From an uncultured Gammaproteobacteria bacterium (GTDB lineage Bacteria; Pseudomonadota; Gammaproteobacteria; JAADGQ01): 61,392 bases of DNA. Below the pieces are notes generated by a model. It searched no databases, was not told the origin of the DNA, and saw nothing but the letters and a program-made list of their open reading frames with translations. A program made the translations under genes and the position numbers. Positions 20,066-30,004 of the stretch are shown piece after piece; the first letter of the stretch is position 1, and each line of letters opens with the position of its first letter. The stretch is taken from the NCBI GenBank assembly GCA_964468225.1, contig CAYXVC010000001.1, positions 3,386-64,777 of the forward strand. Direction: 5' to 3'.

Positions 20066-21109
20066 GTGATAGACAGTCAGACACATATTGACTCTTTGGC
20101 TTACAGCCAAGGCGCTCCTGAAGCCCGTGCCACTATTCGCAGCCAGGCTGAAGATTTTCAGGTCGAAGAGCAGTCCGGTTTTGAACCGGATCATGAAGGT
20201 GATCATGCTTGGCTTGTCATCAAGAAACGTCACACCAATACGGACTGGCTCGCTCGTCAATTAGCACAACATGCGAATGTTAAACTACTTGATGTGGGCT
20301 ATGCAGGCATTAAAGATCGACACGCAGTCAGCACTCAAAGCTTTACTGTCAACATTGCGGGCAAACAAGAGCCTGATTGGTCAGAGCTGAATTGTGATGA
20401 GATCACAATACTCAAAGTCACTCGCCACCGTAGAAAATTAAAGCGTGGCTCACTCATCGGCAATCGCTTTCAACTCATATTGCGCCACTTTGAAGGGTGT
20501 AAAGAGACCACCGAAGCGCGTTTACAAACCATCTCTGAGCATGGTGTACCCAACTATTTTGGCAGTCAGCGCTTTGGGTTTAATAACCTGCAACATGCAC
20601 ATGCTCTATTAGTTGATAAAGTTCAGGTAAAAGAGCGACACAAACGCAGTTTATACATCTCATCTGCACGCTCATTCCTCTTCAATATTGTACTTTCTGA
20701 ACGTGTTAAACAAGGTTTTTGGAATCGCTGCATGGTGGGTGATCGGCTGATCGACCCGGAAACAGAGCAACTCCTGATTACAGGAGCTTCTAACAACAAT
20801 CTGAATGGCTATCTCGATGCGATGAAAACCCACCCTACTGCTCCACTTTGGGGGCGTGGTTTGTTACAGACAACAGGGCAAGCACTTCAGTTTGAACAAG
20901 AAACATTATCAAAACAGAGTGACTGGCTGACAGGGCTTGAATATGCAGGGCTCCAGCAACAGCGCCGAGCAACGCGTCTTGAAGCAAAAAACCTGCAATG
21001 GTGCTGGCTGGATCATTCAACACTTCAATTGCAGTTCAATCTAACTTCTGGCAGCTATGCCACCACTGTTCTGAGAGAAGTTGCACATTGCTCTGCAAGT
21101 ACTCACTAG
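20066..21109 (+). CDS. truD: tRNA pseudouridine(13) synthase TruD
   Basis: GTG start. GYAGIKDRHAVSTQ (catalytic Asp context). Collinear with E. coli TruD. Confidence 0.88.
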   Translation: MIDSQTHIDSLAYSQGAPEARATIRSQAEDFQVEEQSGFEPDHEGDHAWLVIKKRHTNTDWLARQLAQHANVKLLDVGYAGIKDRHAVSTQSFTVNIAGKQEPDWSELNCDEITILKVTRHRRKLKRGSLIGNRFQLILRHFEGCKETTEARLQTISEHGVPNYFGSQRFGFNNLQHAHALLVDKVQVKERHKRSLYISSARSFLFNIVLSERVKQGFWNRCMVGDRLIDPETEQLLITGASNNNLNGYLDAMKTHPTAPLWGRGLLQTTGQALQFEQETLSKQSDWLTGLEYAGLQQQRRATRLEAKNLQWCWLDHSTLQLQFNLTSGSYATTVLREVAHCSASTH

Positions 21110-21519
21110 TAACCAAAAATTTGATCAAGAGTGCTTTCCAAACTTTCCAACTCGTCCACATTGCTCAGAGTTTTTAATCGTGTACCTTCACCATTGAATA
21201 ATACTAGTGTGGCATTACCAGCCATATTTTTGCGTGAAAATTCCACTCCTTTCCGAGAACCAGTTTCAACAATACGGAATTCGATGCGATCTTTATAAAA
21301 GCCTCTAATGGTATCGACCCGATTCATCATGTTAAGACTGCGAACGCCTTCTTTATTATGCACCAGTACAGCAACGTTTTTTCCACTACCAATCACGGAA
21401 AGATCTTCGCTATAACCCGTGGGCAGCATTTTGATTCCAAGCGTCATACCAATAATGATAATCAGAAGAATAAGTGACCACTGTATCCAACGGTTTTTAG
21501 TTATATTTATATTGCTCAT
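21106..21519 (-). CDS. Membrane-anchored hypothetical protein (thioredoxin-fold-like, no CxxC)
   Basis: Start at MSNINITKNRW.. preceded by GGAAGGAAAG. One N-terminal TM segment. No recognisable catalytic motif. Confidence 0.5.
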   Translation of the reverse strand: MSNINITKNRWIQWSLILLIIIIGMTLGIKMLPTGYSEDLSVIGSGKNVAVLVHNKEGVRSLNMMNRVDTIRGFYKDRIEFRIVETGSRKGVEFSRKNMAGNATLVLFNGEGTRLKTLSNVDELESLESTLDQIFGY

Positions 21520-21704
21520 GCTTTCCTTCCAAACAGTCTTGATGTGAGTAAGTCTCGAAAATATGCACAATAAAAACCACCTTCTCGCATTCCAGGAGCA
21601 CCTTCATCAACTCCTCCAAGCGTAATATAACCGATCATCTCACTTCTCCGAGCAATTAAAAGTTAATAATACTACTAATATCATTTTTCTTTTTGACTAT
21701 GACC

Positions 21705-21999: not shown

Positions 22000-22314
22000 T
22001 CACACCCTTTTTACAGATTGTTCCTCACTCACACTTCGCTCCACCTGTTTAATATCTGATGAAACTGATACCCGTGTTTCATCAATCAAACGGTGCAACT
22101 CTGCGAGATCAGCTTCTTTTGCCATACTGTTTTTCAGGCTATCCACTCTCTCCAGCTCGTCATTAACGCTATCTTTAGCGGATTGAAGCATCTGCTTTCC
22201 TTGCCGCACCCACGCTATCACTTTGCGCACTAACGCTGGAAATTCATCGGGACCAACCACTAACAGTGCCACAATTCCGATCAACAGCACTTCCCAAAAA
22301 CCGATATCGAACAT
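22000..22314 (-). CDS. tatB: Sec-independent translocase subunit TatB (short, 104 aa)
   Basis: MFDIGFWEVLLIGIVALLVVGPDEFPALVRKV is a typical TatB N-terminus. Confidence 0.85.
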   Translation of the reverse strand: MFDIGFWEVLLIGIVALLVVGPDEFPALVRKVIAWVRQGKQMLQSAKDSVNDELERVDSLKNSMAKEADLAELHRLIDETRVSVSSDIKQVERSVSEEQSVKRV

Positions 22315-22332
22315 TAATAATCTCCGATCAAA

Positions 22333-22539
22333 TTACACCTGAGTTTTACTATTTTTCAATGCCGCCTTTTCATCAGACCCATCAGCATTTTTACTCTCAT
22401 CATTCATTGCTTTCTTGAATCCGCTTAAAAAACCACCCATATCGTTACCCATGCCACGGAGTTTTTTAGTTCCAAAAATAAGCGCAACAATCGCTAAAAT
22501 AATCAAAAGTTGCCAGATACTGATTCCACCAAAACCCAT
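22333..22539 (-). CDS. tatA: Sec-independent translocase subunit TatA
   Basis: [31 protein letters not shown] is a typical TatA/E sequence. Confidence 0.88.
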
Positions 22540-22588
22540 AATTTCACCTCAATATTTATTTAGTCGATACATAATAGTACCACTCAAC

Positions 22589-22625
22589 AAAAAAAAAGGA
22601 TGCGCAGCCAATGACTGTGCATCCT
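22589..22625 (-). terminator. Intrinsic terminator after the molybdoenzyme large-subunit gene
   Basis: 11-bp stem (AGGATGCGCAG / CTGTGCATCCT, one mismatch) with a 7-nt loop. On the minus strand it is followed by a run of 8-9 T. It begins 23 nt after the stop at 22648. Confidence 0.7.
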
Positions 22626-22647
22626 AATATCCAGAAAACCGCCCCCT

Positions 22648-25356
22648 TTAAGCGATATTGCGTGGTGCAAAAGACATCGAACGGAAAGTCTTTTTATATT
22701 TAGACTCACCAATTTTTTTCACCCGGGCAATGCCCATCTTGTAGTTATAGTTACCCGTGATATTGTCAATCACGCGCGCCTGAACTGCATTAGAAGATTG
22801 CGCTACATTAAGAAAGTTGCTGTAGAGCACACCCTTCTTAATAGCAGGAGTCACCACAGCCACCGCTGTAAACGCACCCTTGGAAATTTCAATGTGGCCA
22901 TTCTTCATCAGCTCAGAGAACTGGAAGTCATTACCACCTACACCGAGAATCGTATCTTTAAAGATGGGAACACGATCATTCCATGCCATCACCATATCAC
23001 CCGACTCAATGCCGCGATTTTTGGCATCCTCTGGGTGTATTTCTACAAACTGAGCATCCCACGGGAAACGTTGCGCAATATAAGCACGCCGCTCCGTATC
23101 ATCAAAACCCGATTGCCAGATTTCATTCATACGGCCATTGGTATGCCACAACTCATCATCCTTGGGGTCGAGCCAGTTCCAGAGATCAGAAAAGAGACTC
23201 CAGGGGTGCTTCTGAATATTGACTTTACCGGTTTGCGAATTGAAATGGGTGTATTTTTTACTGTGAAAATTAGCTCCCGTAGGCCCATCCTTACCCCATT
23301 TTTTATCCATATCCGCCTGCGTCAACGTCGTATCATGCAACCGCTTAGTACCGTGTAATGTACCGTTGTCGTAGTTGTAGAAAGTCGGCCCCTGAATACC
23401 ATCAGTACCCAGCTCACGCATTTTTTCATGAAGCGTTTTTCCTTCTTTATGCGCAGCCACTTTCACCATATGAAACGCTTTGCGCCCCTTACGGCTGAAA
23501 CGTGACATCTCTTCAGCGACATCATTGGAATTTTTCCAGTCGTAACCTTCAAAACCCATGCGCTTGGCAAGCTGCCCTATAATCCACCAATCAGGTTTCG
23601 CTTCACCCGGTGCATCATAAAACTTGCTGTAGAGGCGCAAACGACGCTCTCCATTAGCCCGAGTGAAGTCCACTTCACCCCATGTTGCTGCTGGAAAGAT
23701 GATATCGGAATAGCGACCACCAATCGGATAACGCAAATAGATATCCTGATCAATCACCACCATGCCGCCAGAGTCAGCACGCTTTTTGAGCGTATCAATA
23801 ATCTCCTGCTTATCCCACGAACGCACCTGATTAGGATTATTCAGCGTCAGCTCTTCAAAGGTCTGTGCAAAGCGCCCTGACCCAAGCATGGATTGAATCC
23901 AGGTGGTACCGATAACATGCGCCATACGGACCTGACCGGAACGCAACCAGCGGTCAGTATCAAGTGCTCTTCTACGACGACCTGGTACTTTCTCTGGCGA
24001 TTTGTTACGCGGATGCGCTGCGCCACTTTGACCACCACGCTGATGACCGCCAAAACGCCCTACAACCTGCCCGGGACGGCCTCCGGCACCACAACTGGTT
24101 GCCAGTGAAGAGATGGCGTTGGTATTGGCCGTATTATTAGACCAGTAGAAACCCTTTTCGATACCAAAAGAGGCTTTAACCCGACTGCCATCGGCTTTCG
24201 GTTTAGCAATCCACTCCGCAGCTTGTTTGATTTTCTTCGCATCAACACCTGAAATTTTAGCCGCATTAGTGAGCTTGTAATCATCCTGAGAGAGCAACCA
24301 TTTTTTGTAGCCCTCAAAACCACTGGTCTGGAATTTACCCCAAGTAGTACGCCATTGCCACGGCGTATTACGAGTCCCTTGCCCAAAGCCTGAGCTCGAT
24401 TCCCACTTGTTGTTGACCCACTTTTCAACCCACTCTTTATCTTCCCAGCCATTCTCCAGAATGATGCGTGTAATTGCACCCACCACCAGAACATCAGTCC
24501 CTGGTATGACATCCAGATGGATGCCTTTGCCGGTTTTCACCGCGTAAGCAATCCCTGCTGTCTGGCGTGGATTGAGCCAGATCGTCTTCATACCACGATC
24601 AATCCCCGGTTTTATGTATTGAGTGTAGATAATGGTTTTTGTCTCATAAGGATCAGTGCCACAAACCACCAACGTATCAGCCGCCCCCCAATCTTCATAA
24701 GATGGGCCGAAATTATCAAACCCGGCATCACGAAAACCGGGCGTGGAAGTCACCCGCGCCGGAGTATCATGCCAAGTAAAAGCGGCTGTGTTGATATCCT
24801 TGCCACCAAACTTGGTAATTGCGTAGGTATTTTCCATGTATTGGTAAGAGTACGTTTTGATGGAATAGGCATTCGCCCCATGCTCTTTCACTACATGTTT
24901 GGCCACCTCCGCCGCCACTTCCAGCGCAAAATCCCACGATACGGGCTGCAAAATACCAAAGATGCGCATCAGCGGTGTTTTCAAACGATCTCGTGTCGGA
25001 CTATCCGGGTTATAGCATTTTTGCGCAATACAACCCCCACGAATACTCGCATCGCCTGATAAATTGACCGCTTTGGTCTGTCTATCAGGAAGCACCACTA
25101 CATTGTGAGGTCTGCTTTTATGCATCACCACATTATGCTGCGTCGGTGCCACCCACTCCTCAAGTGCCGAGCAAGGAAAATCGACACCAAAAGCATTTTG
25201 TGACGCTTTGGGACCACCATCACCGCTGCCCAGTGGCCAACGATAAACCTTGTAGCCACAAGCGACGATACAGTAGTCGCACGCTGTTGTTAGAACATCT
25301 GCGTTTTTCGGTGGAAGTGGGGCGCTATCCCCAGGGATATAATATTCAGTTGCCAT
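22648..25356 (-). CDS. idrA: AioA/IdrA-family molybdopterin oxidoreductase, large (catalytic) subunit; candidate iodate reductase IdrA (arsenite oxidase AioA not excluded)
   Basis: 902 aa with no signal peptide. N-terminal 3Fe-4S motif CDYCIVAC (C-x2-C-x3-C) in TTACDYCIVACGYKVYRW, against AioA MTCHFCIVGCGYHVYKW. Collinear blocks: VVLPDRQ..SIRGG, GRFGGHQRGG, and the C-terminal ...RSMSFAPRN. AGGAGG lies 7 nt upstream. The gene context is two cytochrome c peroxidases. Confidence 0.6.
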   Translation of the reverse strand: MATEYYIPGDSAPLPPKNADVLTTACDYCIVACGYKVYRWPLGSGDGGPKASQNAFGVDFPCSALEEWVAPTQHNVVMHKSRPHNVVVLPDRQTKAVNLSGDASIRGGCIAQKCYNPDSPTRDRLKTPLMRIFGILQPVSWDFALEVAAEVAKHVVKEHGANAYSIKTYSYQYMENTYAITKFGGKDINTAAFTWHDTPARVTSTPGFRDAGFDNFGPSYEDWGAADTLVVCGTDPYETKTIIYTQYIKPGIDRGMKTIWLNPRQTAGIAYAVKTGKGIHLDVIPGTDVLVVGAITRIILENGWEDKEWVEKWVNNKWESSSGFGQGTRNTPWQWRTTWGKFQTSGFEGYKKWLLSQDDYKLTNAAKISGVDAKKIKQAAEWIAKPKADGSRVKASFGIEKGFYWSNNTANTNAISSLATSCGAGGRPGQVVGRFGGHQRGGQSGAAHPRNKSPEKVPGRRRRALDTDRWLRSGQVRMAHVIGTTWIQSMLGSGRFAQTFEELTLNNPNQVRSWDKQEIIDTLKKRADSGGMVVIDQDIYLRYPIGGRYSDIIFPAATWGEVDFTRANGERRLRLYSKFYDAPGEAKPDWWIIGQLAKRMGFEGYDWKNSNDVAEEMSRFSRKGRKAFHMVKVAAHKEGKTLHEKMRELGTDGIQGPTFYNYDNGTLHGTKRLHDTTLTQADMDKKWGKDGPTGANFHSKKYTHFNSQTGKVNIQKHPWSLFSDLWNWLDPKDDELWHTNGRMNEIWQSGFDDTERRAYIAQRFPWDAQFVEIHPEDAKNRGIESGDMVMAWNDRVPIFKDTILGVGGNDFQFSELMKNGHIEISKGAFTAVAVVTPAIKKGVLYSNFLNVAQSSNAVQARVIDNITGNYNYKMGIARVKKIGESKYKKTFRSMSFAPRNIA

Positions 25357-25369
25357 GTCGTCCCCCTCC

Positions 25370-25945
25370 TTATGATTGTATTAAGTTTGTGTTACGGCCA
25401 AAGATCAGCCCCATCATGCCGACGGCGTAAATCTTATCGCCATCAAGCTCCAGAAGCACCTGCGGTAAACTTTGATATGCCTGCCCCGATATGACGATGC
25501 CGTGGCGCGTCAGATCGTAAGTAGATAAGTGCAGAGGGCACTGCCCCAAGACGCGATGATTACCTTCCACCTGATAAGTCCCTTGCATAGGCCCACCCTG
25601 GTGAGTACATAAGTAGTTAAATGCGACGATATCGCGCTGCTTGCCAATACCACCGCCTGCTTCAACACCGCCCATCTTCACCAGCATCGCATCAGAATTC
25701 GGCAAATTATCTGGGTAATTAAAGCTCTCTGGCTTGTTATCACGCAGTTTGCTTAACCTTCCGATCAACTTGCGAGGATATTGCGCCACTTGAGCATCTC
25801 TCGCAAAAGCAGTCCCCGGAAACAGTGTCACCGTACTGGCCGCCGTAATACCCGCACCCGAATAGAGCAAGAACTCACGGCGGTTGACCATGCAGTTGCC
25901 ATGAGCCTCCGCAGATCGCTCTTCTTTTTTAATTTCAGTGGTCAT
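25370..25945 (-). CDS. idrB: AioB/IdrB-family Rieske [2Fe-2S] small subunit with twin-arginine signal
   Basis: Tat motif NRREFLLYSGAG...AFA. Rieske ligands CTH...CPLH (C-x-H / C-x-x-H). The ATG forms an ATGA overlap with the upstream peroxidase stop. Confidence 0.65.
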   Translation of the reverse strand: MTTEIKKEERSAEAHGNCMVNRREFLLYSGAGITAASTVTLFPGTAFARDAQVAQYPRKLIGRLSKLRDNKPESFNYPDNLPNSDAMLVKMGGVEAGGGIGKQRDIVAFNYLCTHQGGPMQGTYQVEGNHRVLGQCPLHLSTYDLTRHGIVISGQAYQSLPQVLLELDGDKIYAVGMMGLIFGRNTNLIQS

Positions 25946-27108
25946 TTTTTAACCCCCTTAAGTTCCGCCAATGTAAACAGCGGTGCATAATCAGGCAATT
26001 TTGGTTTTGCCATTTCAATTTCATCACCCGAAAATGCTTCTATGAAAGCGACAAGATCTTCTTTCTCCTCATCCGTCAGACCTAATTTTTTAATCAGCGG
26101 ACTTTTGGTTTTATAAGAAGTAGTGCGACCATCTTCGGTAAAGCCGCCTCGATCATAGAAGTCCACCACCTCTTCCATAGTAAAGAGCTGTCCATTATGC
26201 CCATAAGGTGCTGTGTACGCGGTGTAACGCAACGAAGGTGTACGGAATTTACCCAGTGACCACTTGTTTTTATTACGGAAATAAAGCCCAGGGTCATCCT
26301 TTGATGTGCGATATAACTCTTCTGTCGCACCCTTGGCGTAGAGTTCAAAACGATAAGTGATCTGCGCCAAACCATCTTCCAGCCAACGTGGGCTCGGTGG
26401 CATACCGACATTGTAATATTTTTCATCCGTCGCCAACGGGCCATTGTGACATTGCACACAGCCTGCTTTACCTTCAAACAACGCTTTACCACGCACCTGC
26501 TCTTCGCTTAATGCGGACTTGTCACCCCGCAGATATTGATCCAGCGGCGTATCTTTTTGAATCAGCGTCCGTTCAAAAGCAGCAATAGCACGCCATGCAT
26601 TTTTGATGGTGGGCCAAGGTTGGCCAAACACTGTGTTGAAACGTTTGACGTAGTCTGGGATCAATCGCAGACGTGCCTCCATCAAATCACGTTCACCGTT
26701 ACCGGCAACGCCCCCACGAGCGGCCGATGGCGCTTGTGCCTCCAATGAAGGAACCGAACCTGCCCAAAAGAGCTTGCCGTAGTAGCCGGAATTGATGATG
26801 GTTTGACTGCTACGCCAATGCACCGTACCGGGATAGCCGCGAGAGATATCCTCTGCCCATGACCAGCCTTGATCAGATGCATGACAGGTCGCACAACTGA
26901 TTGATGCATCCCCTCCCAAACGTGGATCAAAAAACAGTAGTTTACCCAGCGCCACCTTAGCATCTGACATCGGGTTATCTGCTGGAACCGGTGGATCATA
27001 ATCCAGCGATGCCAGTGATGGCTTGGCCGCCCATGCGGAACCTGCACAAAGCAGACCGATGGCCGTACTCATCACCAGCAGTTTGATACGAAATGTGATT
27101 GTATTCAT
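25942..27108 (-). CDS. Di-haem cytochrome c peroxidase (CCP/MauG family); IdrP-like
   Basis: Signal peptide. Two CxxCH motifs (CATCH, CVQCH). GAGGAGG RBS in the 14-nt spacer after the preceding peroxidase gene. Confidence 0.85.
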   Translation of the reverse strand: MNTITFRIKLLVMSTAIGLLCAGSAWAAKPSLASLDYDPPVPADNPMSDAKVALGKLLFFDPRLGGDASISCATCHASDQGWSWAEDISRGYPGTVHWRSSQTIINSGYYGKLFWAGSVPSLEAQAPSAARGGVAGNGERDLMEARLRLIPDYVKRFNTVFGQPWPTIKNAWRAIAAFERTLIQKDTPLDQYLRGDKSALSEEQVRGKALFEGKAGCVQCHNGPLATDEKYYNVGMPPSPRWLEDGLAQITYRFELYAKGATEELYRTSKDDPGLYFRNKNKWSLGKFRTPSLRYTAYTAPYGHNGQLFTMEEVVDFYDRGGFTEDGRTTSYKTKSPLIKKLGLTDEEKEDLVAFIEAFSGDEIEMAKPKLPDYAPLFTLAELKGVKK

Positions 27109-27122
27109 CTCTGCCTCCTCAA

Positions 27123-28250
27123 TTAATTACGTACGTTGTTCCAATCGGCGATGGCTTCGTACTCCTTCGGATAGGCTTCAGCCCATACGAATTCGCTTCC
27201 CGTCAATGCATCACCCGACAGAGATTCAAGAAAAGCCACCAAGTCCTTCTGTTCCTTGCCAGAAAGTCCAAGAGGCTTAATCAATGGGTCTTTGTGACTA
27301 TCAGGCCCACCGCCATTGTTATAGAACGCCACTACCTCTTTCAGTGTTTTTATCATGCCATTGTGCATATAGGGCGGCGTATGTTTCAGCTCACGCAATG
27401 TAGGCGTGATGAACTTGCCCATATCAGAACCATCTGCCGTGTGCGTCTGCACATAAGCTCCGGGGTCACGCTTCAGATTCATGTAATTACTGATTCCCAT
27501 GAAGCTGGCATAGGCAATAAATGCCTGATGACGTTCAGGATCCATAAACACATCGTAATTTTCTGGTACGCCCGTATTATGACCCTTGTTATCAGTAAAA
27601 TTGGCACCGTTATGGCATTGAATACAACCCGCCTTGCCTTTAAACAGCTTCATGCCACGCTTCGCTGACGACGACATTTTTCCGTTATCAAAAGGCGCAT
27701 TACGAGAAGTAAGCGTTTTCAAATACTCAGGTATGGCTTTACGGGTCGAACCGTTGGATGGCTCACCATATCCCGCATCTTTAAACATCTTCACATAAAC
27801 AGGATCCTGCTTAAGCCGCTCCTGCATGATGCGCATATCCATATTGAGAATATAATCCTCGGTGATCATGCCACGAGTCACATCATTAAGATTGGTACCA
27901 ATACGACCATCATGATTCCATACCGTTTTATGTACCGTATTGATCATCGTCGGTGAATTGCGAAAATGTTTATTGCCAGGATACCCAGGAGAAAGTGCAT
28001 CCGGATGAGAAAAGCCATGCTTTGGATCATGGCACTTGGCACAAGAGATTGCTGCATCCCCTGAAAGCCGTTTATCAAAAAAGAGTCGTTTACCCAGCTC
28101 CGCCTTTGCTTTGTCAATTTTTACCTTCGGTAGTGGGCCAATATCAGGTACGCTTGCCGCATTAGCACTCAAAGCGACCCCCAACCCCACTGCCACCGCT
28201 ATAAAATAGAGCAGCTTGGAATGCTGCTTTTTAATCGCCCTTACGGCCAT
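27123..28250 (-). CDS. Di-haem cytochrome c peroxidase (CCP/MauG family); IdrP-like
   Basis: Two CxxCH motifs (CAKCH, CIQCH). I prefer the start at MAVRAIKKQHSKLLYFIAVAV.. (28250) because GGAGGAGGGG lies directly upstream. The track ORF extends to 28331. Confidence 0.85.
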   Translation of the reverse strand: MAVRAIKKQHSKLLYFIAVAVGLGVALSANAASVPDIGPLPKVKIDKAKAELGKRLFFDKRLSGDAAISCAKCHDPKHGFSHPDALSPGYPGNKHFRNSPTMINTVHKTVWNHDGRIGTNLNDVTRGMITEDYILNMDMRIMQERLKQDPVYVKMFKDAGYGEPSNGSTRKAIPEYLKTLTSRNAPFDNGKMSSSAKRGMKLFKGKAGCIQCHNGANFTDNKGHNTGVPENYDVFMDPERHQAFIAYASFMGISNYMNLKRDPGAYVQTHTADGSDMGKFITPTLRELKHTPPYMHNGMIKTLKEVVAFYNNGGGPDSHKDPLIKPLGLSGKEQKDLVAFLESLSGDALTGSEFVWAEAYPKEYEAIADWNNVRN

Positions 28251-28555
28251 ACCTACCCCTCCTCCAGATTGAAAAATCTCAAACCGCTGCGCTGTTTTTA
28301 AATCAACACAACGGAGGACTATTGTTTGCACTCATTCGTACAGTTAAATAGCAATGCATAATGCAGGCCAGCCATAAAAGGCAACAATATTTCTATATAA
28401 TTCAACAGAGTAAGAAATAGATACGAACAGAAGAAGATGAACGTTTCGTTCTACAGCAACGCCTTGCTCACAAACTTGCAGTTACAAACAAAACAAAACG
28501 TTCAGGGAGCTTTCAGATAGGGAGAGCAAACGACACAACCAGTGCATCAACCAGT

Positions 28556-30004
28556 TTAATCAGCTATCGTAATTTGAGCTGTATCCATTTCAATATAACC
28601 AGGGCGATACCCTGCTTCATCGACAATCGCTTTAAATGTATAAATTTTGGCATTTCCAATTTCAGCTTCACTGCCCCAATACAAAAATTCAGCAACACCC
28701 TCTGTGACCGAGCCGTACCCCAACCTGTCTTCAATGCCTCCATCAAACCCATCGGATGCGATAATGTAAGCACCATCTTCCAACAACCCTGAAACAGAAA
28801 TATCTATAAGAGGTGATTCAGTGACCGTTTCAGTGATCGTCATTGTCGTTTGATTTTTATCACCATTGATCGTCGTTGTGTTAGTGGGCGAAGTAGTTGA
28901 AATGGTTGAGCCCGATGCTGTCCACGCCCCTTGATCCTCACAATTTTCTTCACATACCGTACTATTAACGACATCCCCATCACGATCAAAAATCTCTTTC
29001 TTGCTGTAACTAACCAGGCCAGCGTCTTCCTTGGTGCTATAAGAAGAAAAATCAGCCCGCAGAGTACCAGAATCATTATTGGCTTCACCAATTGCAAAAA
29101 AAGATTGCATGCCCAACTCACTGTTTTTCCGTGACTCGAACTCAACCAATATTTCACCATTTGAGCCATCTAGTGTTTTTAGTGTAATAATTTCTGTATA
29201 TGTGTTTGACAAATTTTCAGAAGATTTATCCGAGCTATCGTATTGAATTTTTACGGACTCTTCATTGCCATCATCAAGATAACTGTAGGTATAGACGTAC
29301 TTTGAATCACTATTTTCAAAACGATACGAAGAGGTCACACGTTGTTTGTTGGCAGGCCATTTCACCAATAATGTTGTCGCATCTTCATTATCCAGCCCAA
29401 TAATTCTTTCCATTTCGGAGAGGTCAAGTGACACTTCGTACTGAAATTCACTCGCCTCCGAAAAAGAGGTATAAACAATCGTTCCAAAACTGATATCGTC
29501 ACCTGAAGTCATTGATAATCGAGGTTCATTGGTTTCAAATGACGCGCCACCCCGTTGATTGTTATTAACAGCATCAATTCTTTCCGCAACAGCCTCTGCC
29601 GCAATAACAATCTCATTTGTTAACTGCAACACAATCGTATCTTGAGGTATTGTACAAGCTTCTCCAGGCGCGAAATCTTTACACTGCAACTGTATTCCTG
29701 ACCAGACTGCATCTAACATTAAAAGTGGTATTTGGTGATTTAATCGATTCACCTCCGCTTCAGTAACACGGTGATTAACTTTGGCAAAAATGGAACCTGC
29801 TTCGCCACTATTGTCAGTGGCTCGAGAAGAGCTTTCCTGTTTGCCTAATAATGAATCAGGAATTTCAATACTGTTTTTCTCTGGAAAGTACTGCATAGCA
29901 TAAGATTTTGCCTGATTTTTTATTGACTGATCCTCGCTACCACAAGCGCTCAACACTAAAATAACAGGAACAAACAGCAGTGACACTGGGTTCTTTTTCA
30001 TCAC
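28556..30004 (-). CDS. Acidic lipoprotein of unknown family (482 aa), paralogue of 10821-12758, directly upstream of the peroxidase/molybdoenzyme operon
   Basis: Lipobox VLSAC. Shared blocks with the 645-aa protein: NSIEIPDSLL, LLMLDAVW, GEACTIP, IVYTSFS..EFQYEV, VCEENCEDQGAW. I recognise no family. Confidence 0.8.
   Translation of the reverse strand: MMKKNPVSLLFVPVILVLSACGSEDQSIKNQAKSYAMQYFPEKNSIEIPDSLLGKQESSSRATDNSGEAGSIFAKVNHRVTEAEVNRLNHQIPLLMLDAVWSGIQLQCKDFAPGEACTIPQDTIVLQLTNEIVIAAEAVAERIDAVNNNQRGGASFETNEPRLSMTSGDDISFGTIVYTSFSEASEFQYEVSLDLSEMERIIGLDNEDATTLLVKWPANKQRVTSSYRFENSDSKYVYTYSYLDDGNEESVKIQYDSSDKSSENLSNTYTEIITLKTLDGSNGEILVEFESRKNSELGMQSFFAIGEANNDSGTLRADFSSYSTKEDAGLVSYSKKEIFDRDGDVVNSTVCEENCEDQGAWTASGSTISTTSPTNTTTINGDKNQTTMTITETVTESPLIDISVSGLLEDGAYIIASDGFDGGIEDRLGYGSVTEGVAEFLYWGSEAEIGNAKIYTFKAIVDEAGYRPGYIEMDTAQITIAD

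Follow-up and report, generated by a model that had tools for sequence, protein, structure and literature searches.

A predicted iodate reductase operon of the idrP1-idrP2-idrB-idrA type in an uncultured marine gammaproteobacterium

Background

Two isolated bacteria, Denitromonas iodatirespirans IR-12 and Pseudomonas sp. SCT, reportedly respire iodate by means of IdrABP1P2, an iodate reductase (Idr) system that combines a molybdopterin catalytic subunit (IdrA) and a Rieske small subunit (IdrB) with two di-heme proteins of the cytochrome c peroxidase (CCP)/MauG family (IdrP1 and IdrP2). We analyze here a 61,392-nucleotide (nt) stretch of DNA (hereafter, the window) from an uncultured gammaproteobacterium (assembly GCA_964468225.1, contig CAYXVC010000001.1, positions 3,386 to 64,777), on whose minus strand an earlier note, written from the sequence alone, had proposed a candidate idr locus. 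Four genes in the order idrP1-idrP2-idrB-idrA form an arrangement that is orthologous to the clusters of a validated iodate respirer and of published predicted iodate reducers, and they probably encode a periplasmic iodate reductase belonging to the arsenite-oxidase branch of the dimethyl sulfoxide (DMSO) reductase family.

Iodate reduction by Idr enzymes has been documented in several hosts. Knockout of idrA abolishes growth on iodate in D. iodatirespirans IR-12 (PMC8692401), both iodate reduction activity and idr induction were shown in Roseovarius azorensis (PMC11445184), and idr clusters derived from metagenome-assembled genomes have been expressed in Escherichia coli (PMC13455634). Azonexus hydrophilus NCP973, with which we compare the window throughout, is one of two strains with measured dissimilatory iodate reduction in a 2026 study (PMC13455634). 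Alphaproteobacterial and SAR324 clusters, which form a clade distinct from that of the isolates, still reduced iodate when tested (PMC11445184, PMC13455634). By 2021, idr had been reported in 145 genomes. Reyes-Umana et al. (PMC8692401) took adjoining peroxidase genes as the criterion that separates IdrA from AioA, the catalytic subunit of arsenite oxidase, whose loci are without them, and their Table S3 names Endozoicomonas OPT23, Sedimenticola thiotaurini, Thiomargarita nelsonii, Vibrio sinaloensis and tubeworm symbionts as predicted iodate reducers.

According to the published descriptions, IdrB carries a twin-arginine translocation (Tat) signal, IdrA carries none, IdrP1 and IdrP2 carry signals for the general secretory (Sec) pathway, and no quinone oxidoreductase is encoded in the cluster. 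Two models of the reaction have been put forward. In one, IdrAB takes electrons from a c-type cytochrome and converts IO3- to hypoiodous acid (HIO) and H2O2, the latter being reduced by IdrP1 and IdrP2. In the other, IdrAB carries out a four-electron reduction of IO3- to HIO, which disproportionates abiotically to I- and IO3-, and the peroxidases do no more than detoxify incidental oxidants.

The reduction of iodate to iodide shapes marine iodine speciation, the emission of volatile iodine and ozone chemistry, and it affects the mobility of radioactive iodine-129. The locus described here extends the list of predicted iodate reducers by one, a member of an uncultured marine gammaproteobacterial lineage. 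The Idr system itself is already described, and its basic picture, published since 2020-2021, is unchanged by the details added here, which are a palindrome upstream of a conserved putative sigma-54 promoter, a tatA-tatB gene pair that accompanies the cluster in this lineage, and an invariant tyrosine in both peroxidase-like proteins.

Results

The catalytic subunit groups with iodate reductases

We placed the 902-residue window IdrA in a neighbor-joining tree of 49 sequences (100 bootstraps), in which Azonexus NCP973 IdrA is the only validated enzyme. With 100% bootstrap support, the window protein falls into a clade (hereafter, clade A) with those of Endozoicomonas OPT23, S. thiotaurini, T. 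nelsonii, Vibrio (V. sinaloensis) and tubeworm symbionts. Its sister, clade B, holds Azonexus IdrA and that of Sulfurivermis fontis, again with 100% support, and the node joining A and B is recovered in 69% of replicates. The AioA proteins of NT-26, Ralstonia and Thermus HB8 are remote from both, with several unnamed lineages in between. The earlier note had listed nesting inside the AioA clade among the observations that would speak against its proposal, and the tree puts the protein outside the AioA clade and inside the peroxidase-linked clade that the literature defines as IdrA.

Pairwise comparisons give the same picture. The window IdrA is 50% identical to Azonexus IdrA versus 28-33% to AioA of NT-26, Ralstonia, Thermus HB8 and Cytobacillus; across the 49-sequence alignment it is 66-78% identical to marine gammaproteobacterial proteins, the values for Endozoicomonas OPT23, S. 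thiotaurini and T. nelsonii being 70-78%. IdrB is 55% identical to its Azonexus counterpart. No entry named for the IdrA of Pseudomonas SCT, Denitromonas IR-12, Azoarcus DN11 or R. azorensis appeared among the top 120 matches of either homologue search or among the cluster members inspected.

Profile scores depend strongly on the model used. The published IdrA profile sets its cut-off at 640 bits; a profile built from clade B only, used here in its place, gives the window IdrA 1140 bits versus 343 for NT-26 AioA, and an AioA profile gives it 499 bits, close to the validated Azonexus IdrA (504) and far from NT-26 (1412). On TIGR02693, the arsenite oxidase large-subunit model, NT-26 AioA scores 1500 bits, Azonexus IdrA 426 and the window protein 413, against a cut-off of 359; on the small-subunit model TIGR02694, the corresponding values are 231.7 for NT-26 AioB, 115.7 for Azonexus IdrB and 105.4 for the window IdrB (cut-off 96). 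Because a true AioA reaches 1500 bits on TIGR02693 and a validated IdrA 426, a match to this model does not discriminate between the two enzymes. The best solved-structure matches of IdrA are likewise arsenite oxidases, at just 288 bits.

Named relatives in the database are nearly all labelled arsenite oxidase or “arsenate reductase (azurin) large subunit” (P0001-P0120). This mislabelling arises because the TIGR02693 cut-off of 359 bits also admits validated IdrA at 426.

Three insertions are common to the window IdrA and validated IdrA and are missing from AioA. One of them, QGTRNTPWQWRTTWG at residues 326-340, is nearly identical in validated IdrA (GTRNTxWQWRTTWG); another spans 27 residues, 799-825. 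These three insertions and a C-terminal tail account for the 57-77 additional amino acids of the window protein relative to AioA.

One genome holds members of both clades. Sedimenticola hydrogenitrophicus encodes a clade A copy (P0096, 71% identical to the window protein) and a clade B copy (P0384, 67% identical to Azonexus IdrA), so the two clades are kept side by side in a single genome.

Four genes packed for co-translation

The cluster lies entirely on the minus strand. It begins with idrP1 (27123-28250), which encodes a 375-residue di-heme CCP/MauG-family protein with a Sec-type signal peptide, followed by idrP2 (25942-27108; 388 residues, the same family and signal type), idrB (25370-25945; a 191-residue Rieske [2Fe-2S] small subunit) and idrA (22648-25356; the catalytic molybdopterin subunit, which bears a 3Fe-4S motif near its N terminus and lacks a signal peptide). 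The idrP1 and idrP2 genes are separated by a 14-nt spacer, TTGAGGAGGCAGAG, that includes GAGGAGG; idrP2 and idrB overlap by 4 nt in a start/stop ATGA at 25942-25945; and a 13-nt spacer, GGAGGGGGACGAC, follows the TAA stop of idrB and precedes idrA. The four co-oriented genes are thus spaced as in translational coupling and end at an intrinsic terminator (22589-22625, minus strand; hairpin AGGATGCACAG...CTGCGCATCC followed by T9). The ATG of idrP1 is preceded by GGAGGAGG. The longest open reading frame (ORF) reaches back to a GTG at 28331, and we chose the 375-residue start because the protein of the closest relative, 96% identical, is called at 375 amino acids (locus L081, introduced below).

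The motifs can be read directly in the translations. IdrA starts with MATEYYIPGD, has no hydrophobic leader, and carries CDYCIVAC at residues 26-33 and GRFGGHQRGG at 432-441. IdrB has a twin-arginine signal (NRREFL, with an AFA cleavage site) and the Rieske motifs CTH at 113 and CPLH at 136. IdrP1 and IdrP2 have hydrophobic leaders ending in ANA and AWA and two CxxCH motifs each, CAKCH and CIQCH at residues 70 and 209 of IdrP1, and CATCH and CVQCH at 72 and 217 of IdrP2. Pfam and NCBIfam assign domains to the cluster proteins with E-values from 1e-12 to 1e-123, among them Rieske_3 (1.7e-35), Molybdopterin (8e-34) and Molydop_binding for IdrA, and CCP_MauG for IdrP1 (6.7e-36) and IdrP2 (4.5e-40). 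The signal pattern (Tat on IdrB, none on IdrA, Sec on IdrP1 and IdrP2) matches that published for Idr.

Nearly everything that the earlier note had read off this region stands: the four packed minus-strand genes, all of whose ORFs are present as described, the 14-nt spacer with GAGGAGG and the ATGA overlap, every quoted motif, and the terminator, whose hairpin and nine T residues are present and whose folding is supported. Its suggestion that IdrA is exported as a hitch-hiker on IdrB is consistent with a Tat signal on the small subunit and none on the large one. Only the claim of a 13-nt spacer containing AGGAGG needs adjustment, in that the length is right and AGGAGG is complete only when the final A of the TAA stop is counted in.

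At the terminator, folding of a 76-nt stretch yields a 12-bp interrupted stem with a minimum free energy of -21.1 kcal/mol, and the hairpin appears in both the minimum-free-energy and the centroid fold; a simple terminator scan passed over it on account of a single mismatch in the stem. Inside the operon, a promoter and terminator consensus scan gave nothing beyond chance. In the cluster and its surroundings, a search against Rfam detected neither riboswitches nor other RNA elements, its three weak matches all being far below their gathering scores.

Gene order is conserved across relatives

To describe the spread of the cluster, we used one genome per species. At least 507 species genomes have a relative, and the best 80 are all 70-78% identical. 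The order P1-P2-B-A is found in every related locus with enough upstream DNA, amounting to more than 70 species-level genomes. Orthologues of IdrP1 are 62-79% identical and those of IdrP2 60-78%, versus just 32-41% between IdrP1 and IdrP2. Relative to the two Azonexus ccp products, the window IdrP2 pairs clearly with the second (55% versus 35% to the first) and IdrP1 narrowly with the first (47% versus 44% to the second). The earlier note had named the Idr system for strains SCT and IR-12; it identified the system correctly and underestimated its extent, given the 145 genomes known by 2021 and the species counted here.

Outside clades A and B, three lineages (P0124, P0128 and P0129) have Rieske and molybdenum-subunit genes and no peroxidase gene; the lineage closest to A and B, P0123, does have one.

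Between 19 and 25 clade A loci carry three further co-oriented genes upstream of idrP1 (L067, 718-5854; L057, 2864-3697; about 20 others). They encode a multi-heme c protein of about 800 residues, a di-heme cytochrome c of about 277 residues and a CydA-like membrane protein of about 633 residues, and they may form a dedicated electron path from quinol to Idr. This module is absent from the window and also from clade B.

Residues of the catalytic pocket

Across the alignment, 19 columns tell Idr, with clades A and B pooled, apart from AioA. The pocket residues of Alcaligenes faecalis AioA, which we take to be H195, E203, R419 and H423, are partly kept: His196, Arg434 and His438 are retained in the window IdrA. 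The Asn beside the pocket His of AioA is Asp197 in the window protein, and the Glu of AioA GGHQEG is Arg440 (GGHQRG), a Glu-to-Arg change common to clades A and B. At the position of the pocket Glu in the AioA NSE motif, clade A has Ser204 and clade B has Asp, in a loop whose alignment is uncertain; this could represent a functional difference between the clades. AioA, both Idr clades and the intermediate lineages all retain the Arg and His of R-x-G-G-H. As the motif is found in the window protein, validated IdrA and AioA alike, it does not discriminate between substrates, exactly as the earlier note had cautioned. Taken together, these residues assign no substrate.

The peroxidase-like proteins carry an invariant tyrosine

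The best NCBIfam match of IdrP1 and IdrP2 is the MbnH family model. Their scores, however, are below the cut-offs both for MbnH (209 versus 363) and for MauG (191 versus 444). Tyr310 of IdrP1 (window 27321-27323) is invariant in 75 of 75 IdrP1 sequences, as is Tyr318 of IdrP2 (window 26155-26157) in 75 of 75 IdrP2 sequences. In a HMMER alignment of the Azonexus IdrP2 orthologue with Geobacter sulfurreducens CcpA (PDB 3hq6), the Tyr of F-Y-D-x-G-G aligns with the Met of AVAVM, which in canonical di-heme peroxidases we take to be a heme ligand. The invariant Tyr suggests a MauG/MbnH-like His/Tyr heme ligation rather than that of a canonical peroxidase. The two CxxCH motifs for which the earlier note had called the upstream pair CCPs are present in each protein, and the enzymes look MauG/MbnH-like rather than canonical.

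The best PDB match of IdrP2 is 6e1c, titled “Di-heme enzyme.” This entry is presumably MbnH, and BthA is presumably PDB 6nx0. An identification of 6e1c as BthA was rejected, since the heme-ligand residue numbers published for BthA disagree with the chain of that entry. MauG and BthA can reach a bis-Fe(IV) state by virtue of a heme ligated by Tyr and His, and BthA still reduces H2O2 (PMC6405878).

A broader proposal is that IdrP1 and IdrP2 are MauG/MbnH-like, His/Tyr-ligated and bis-Fe(IV)-capable proteins rather than simple H2O2 scavengers, and, separately, that the clade A enzyme has a substrate preference or physiological role distinct from that of the Betaproteobacterial respirers. We consider it rather improbable. 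If it were true, IdrP1 and IdrP2 would perform specific oxidative chemistry, for instance on HIO or I-, or would serve in IdrAB maturation or repair.

At residue 303 of IdrP2 (window 26200-26202), the window and L081 read PYGHNG and the other 74 aligned orthologues PYMHNG. The two Gly codons differ (GGG versus GGA), so this Met-to-Gly replacement is a real lineage-specific change and not a sequencing error.

A putative sigma-54 promoter with an upstream palindrome

Upstream of idrP1 lies a sigma-54 type -24/-12 element, TGGCCTGCATTATGCA (28355-28370, minus strand), 120 nt from the ATG, which we predict to be the promoter of the operon. A strict TGGC-N8-TGC occurs upstream of idrP1 on the sense strand in 39 of 71 loci versus 6 on the antisense strand, at a constant position, and in an upstream alignment of seven loci the promoter core GGCCTG.ATT.TGC is invariant. 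The validated Azonexus cluster has both a promoter element, TGGCACAGTGACTGCA, and an adjacent gene for a sigma-54-dependent regulator, and the idr cluster of Thiothrix also adjoins such a gene. About 80 nt upstream of the -24 element is a palindrome, GAACGAAACGTTC (28439-28451, minus strand), a candidate enhancer or upstream activating sequence. Its core is kept in all seven aligned loci, where the surrounding upstream DNA has diverged, and 22 of the 68 loci have a strict GAAC-N5-GTTC at a constant offset, which shuffled controls never show.

The genes for arsenite oxidase, aioBA, are themselves transcribed from a sigma-54 promoter. No gene for an enhancer-binding protein was found in the window; we envisage that transcription would start from the sigma-54 promoter and that an enhancer-binding protein, with its gene elsewhere in the genome, would activate it from the upstream palindrome. 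Neither of two idr papers (PMC8692401 and PMC13455634) mentions sigma-54 or rpoN.

A 6.5-kb unit with tatA and tatB

Downstream of idrA, two small genes on the minus strand encode components of the Tat system: tatA (22333-22539; 68 residues; TIGR01411, 63.9 bits with a cut-off of 53.9) and tatB (22000-22314; 104 residues; TIGR01410, 73.9 bits with a cut-off of 56.5). No tatC follows tatB. The closest relative, L081 (assembly GCA_021648145.1; IdrA 96% identical), shares nucleotide homology with the window only over 22019-28505, 6.5 kb at 86% identity, and its flanks are entirely different. The shared block comprises the promoter region, the four idr genes, tatA and, as its last gene, tatB. Of the 65 loci whose downstream DNA exceeds 1 kb, only the window and L081 (12775-13329) have a tatA-tatB pair 3' of idrA.

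None of the genes flanking the module in the window is conserved in the 80 other loci, and the cluster has a G+C content of 48.5% versus about 43% on either flank. At the module ends we found neither direct nor inverted repeats, and no integrase or tRNA. To judge from these comparisons, the 6.5-kb unit (promoter, four idr genes and tatAB) appears to behave as a module that can be transferred or relocated.

The window is chromosomal. It also carries htpG, pgm, ispG, rodZ, rlmN, acnA, truD, aceEF-lpd, a RelA/SpoT-family gene and cobalamin biosynthesis genes. A scan of 42 window ORFs found no ars, aioXSR or molybdenum cofactor (Moco) biosynthesis genes, in line with what the earlier note had reported.

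Two side observations concern the surroundings of these genes. A lone tatA occurs on a Thiothrix plasmid, close to the idr genes (L083, 4684-4905), and in Cytobacillus, adjacent to aioA (L087, 6350-6538). The genes flanking the module, at 28556-30004 and 21106-21570 (minus strand), match no Pfam or NCBIfam model; their products are a 482-residue predicted lipoprotein rich in Ser, Thr, Glu and Asp and a 154-residue protein with one hydrophobic segment.

Discussion

Sequence identity, the tree, the shared insertions and the gene order all speak for the iodate reductase reading that the earlier note had proposed, and the published peroxidase criterion, together with the naming of clade A organisms in Table S3 of Reyes-Umana et al., supports the identification of the locus as idr. 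Several points weigh against it. The node uniting clades A and B has 69% support in a distance tree, the sole validated enzyme in that tree (Azonexus) sits in the sister clade at 50% identity, and the validated Alphaproteobacterial and SAR324 enzymes are absent from it. A putative active-site position differs between the clades (Ser204 in A versus Asp in B, with the uncertainty of the loop alignment noted above), and no reported iodate assay of a clade A organism came to light. Unlike in Azonexus, genes for cytochrome c, MoaA or a regulator are missing next to the window cluster; a quinol dehydrogenase gene is missing there too. With none of these beside the cluster, they would have to be supplied from elsewhere in the genome.

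These points lend some weight to the alternative that the clade A molybdenum-Rieske pair is Idr-like in architecture and acts mainly on some other oxyanion or periplasmic compound, iodate reduction being absent or a side activity. Identity to the validated Azonexus enzyme is just 50%, the Ser204/Asp position differs, and no experimental test of a clade A member was found; in addition, many clade A hosts are sulfur-oxidizing symbionts or large sulfur bacteria, these hosts often have the extra heme-rich upstream module that is absent from clade B, and the retention of both clades' copies in S. hydrogenitrophicus may hint at non-redundant roles. We nevertheless regard this alternative as unlikely: the two clades have in common their insertions, the replacement of Glu by Arg in GGHQ(E/R)G, the order of the four genes and orthologous peroxidases, published work counts the whole clade as IdrA, and the Alphaproteobacterial and SAR324 clusters reduced iodate despite belonging to a distinct clade (PMC11445184, PMC13455634). 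The automatic annotation as arsenite oxidase (AioBA) fares far worse, and we judge it very improbable. The window proteins pass both cut-offs (413 versus 359 on TIGR02693, 105 versus 96 on TIGR02694), but with a true AioA at 1500 bits on TIGR02693 and a validated IdrA at 426 this does not discriminate. AioA proteins are the best solved-structure matches and His196, Arg434 and His438 are retained, but the window protein is phylogenetically remote from AioA at 28-33% identity, its pocket Glu is replaced and the Glu of GGHQEG is Arg. The locus has no aioXSR, ars or pst genes, unlike those of NT-26 and Cytobacillus, and it has a peroxidase pair, which AioA loci lack according to the literature.

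A third alternative differs from respiratory iodate reduction in physiology and not in enzymology: the enzyme would reduce iodate without energy conservation, as a micro-oxic side reaction or a detoxification in an aerobe, as in marine Alphaproteobacteria. Kine et al. (PMC11445184) found that aerobic marine bacteria bearing idr reduce iodate only under static, oxygen-limited conditions and that 0.1 uM iodate induces idr, and the window cluster is without a dedicated quinol dehydrogenase or cytochrome c gene. The loss of growth on iodate in the IR-12 idrA knockout indicates, on the other side, that the same enzyme can support respiration, and the content of the window gives no indication about anaerobic respiration. 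We treat this physiology as a genuine possibility, if not the one we would expect.

Assuming that the locus does encode an iodate reductase, the Tat signal on IdrB, its absence from IdrA and the Sec-type leaders of IdrP1 and IdrP2 support a periplasmic location for the predicted enzyme. The remainder of the mechanism we infer by homology. IdrA would acquire its molybdenum cofactor and 3Fe-4S cluster while folding in the cytoplasm and would be exported via Tat bound to IdrB, possibly aided by the co-inherited TatA and TatB. Once in the periplasm, IdrAB would take its electrons from a soluble c-type cytochrome, which has its gene outside the cluster and is supplied by the bc1 complex, and would reduce IO3- to HIO. 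The HIO would disproportionate abiotically to I- and IO3-, and IdrP1 and IdrP2 would remove H2O2 or another by-product oxidant.

Standard pipelines name Idr proteins arsenite oxidase, and surveys of arsenic and iodine cycling can therefore be misled. The sigma-54 promoter with its palindrome, the co-travelling tatAB pair and the invariant Tyr offer handles on how the pathway is switched and on what the peroxidase-like proteins do.

Comparison with known systems

The experimentally validated system compared here is IdrABP1P2 of Azonexus hydrophilus NCP973, which resembles the window in gene order, in the pairing of a Tat-signal Rieske protein with a signal-less molybdenum subunit, and in its orthologous peroxidases, as well as in the insertions, the GGHQRG motif and the sigma-54 type promoter. 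The plasmid locus of Azonexus (L082) reads histidine kinase, sigma-54 regulator, ccp, ccp, Rieske, molybdenum subunit, cytochrome c and moaA. The window differs in that it has neither the histidine kinase and regulator genes upstream nor the cytochrome c and moaA genes downstream, where it has tatA-tatB instead, and in that its locus lies among housekeeping genes rather than on a plasmid. The predicted iodate-reduction islands of marine Gammaproteobacteria share the IdrA clade (70-75% identity), gene order and promoter element with the window. Unlike the window, they have unrelated flanks, the upstream heme/CydA-like module in 19-25 loci, and no tatAB pair (found in the window and L081 only).

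The MauG/MbnH/BthA group resembles IdrP1 and IdrP2 in that MbnH is their best family match, 6e1c is the best PDB match, and an invariant Tyr aligns with the putative Met ligand of canonical peroxidases. In contrast to that group, the window has no partner gene for MbnP or methylamine dehydrogenase, and the IdrP proteins score below the family cut-offs. Arsenite oxidase AioBA (NT-26, PDB 4AAY; Alcaligenes faecalis, PDB 1G8K) has the 3Fe-4S motif, the bis-molybdopterin guanine dinucleotide (bis-MGD) fold, a Tat-signal Rieske partner and the pocket His, Arg and His in common with the window proteins, and in NT-26 a sigma-54-dependent regulator gene, aioR, stands beside the cluster, as in Azonexus. 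Unlike the window IdrA, AioA is 57-77 amino acids shorter, has the pocket Glu, and reads GGHQEG rather than GGHQRG. Its genes are accompanied by aioXSR, cytochrome c and ars/pst genes (NT-26 and Cytobacillus loci), whereas those of the window are accompanied by the peroxidase pair, and AioBA catalysis runs in the direction opposite to that of the reductase predicted here.

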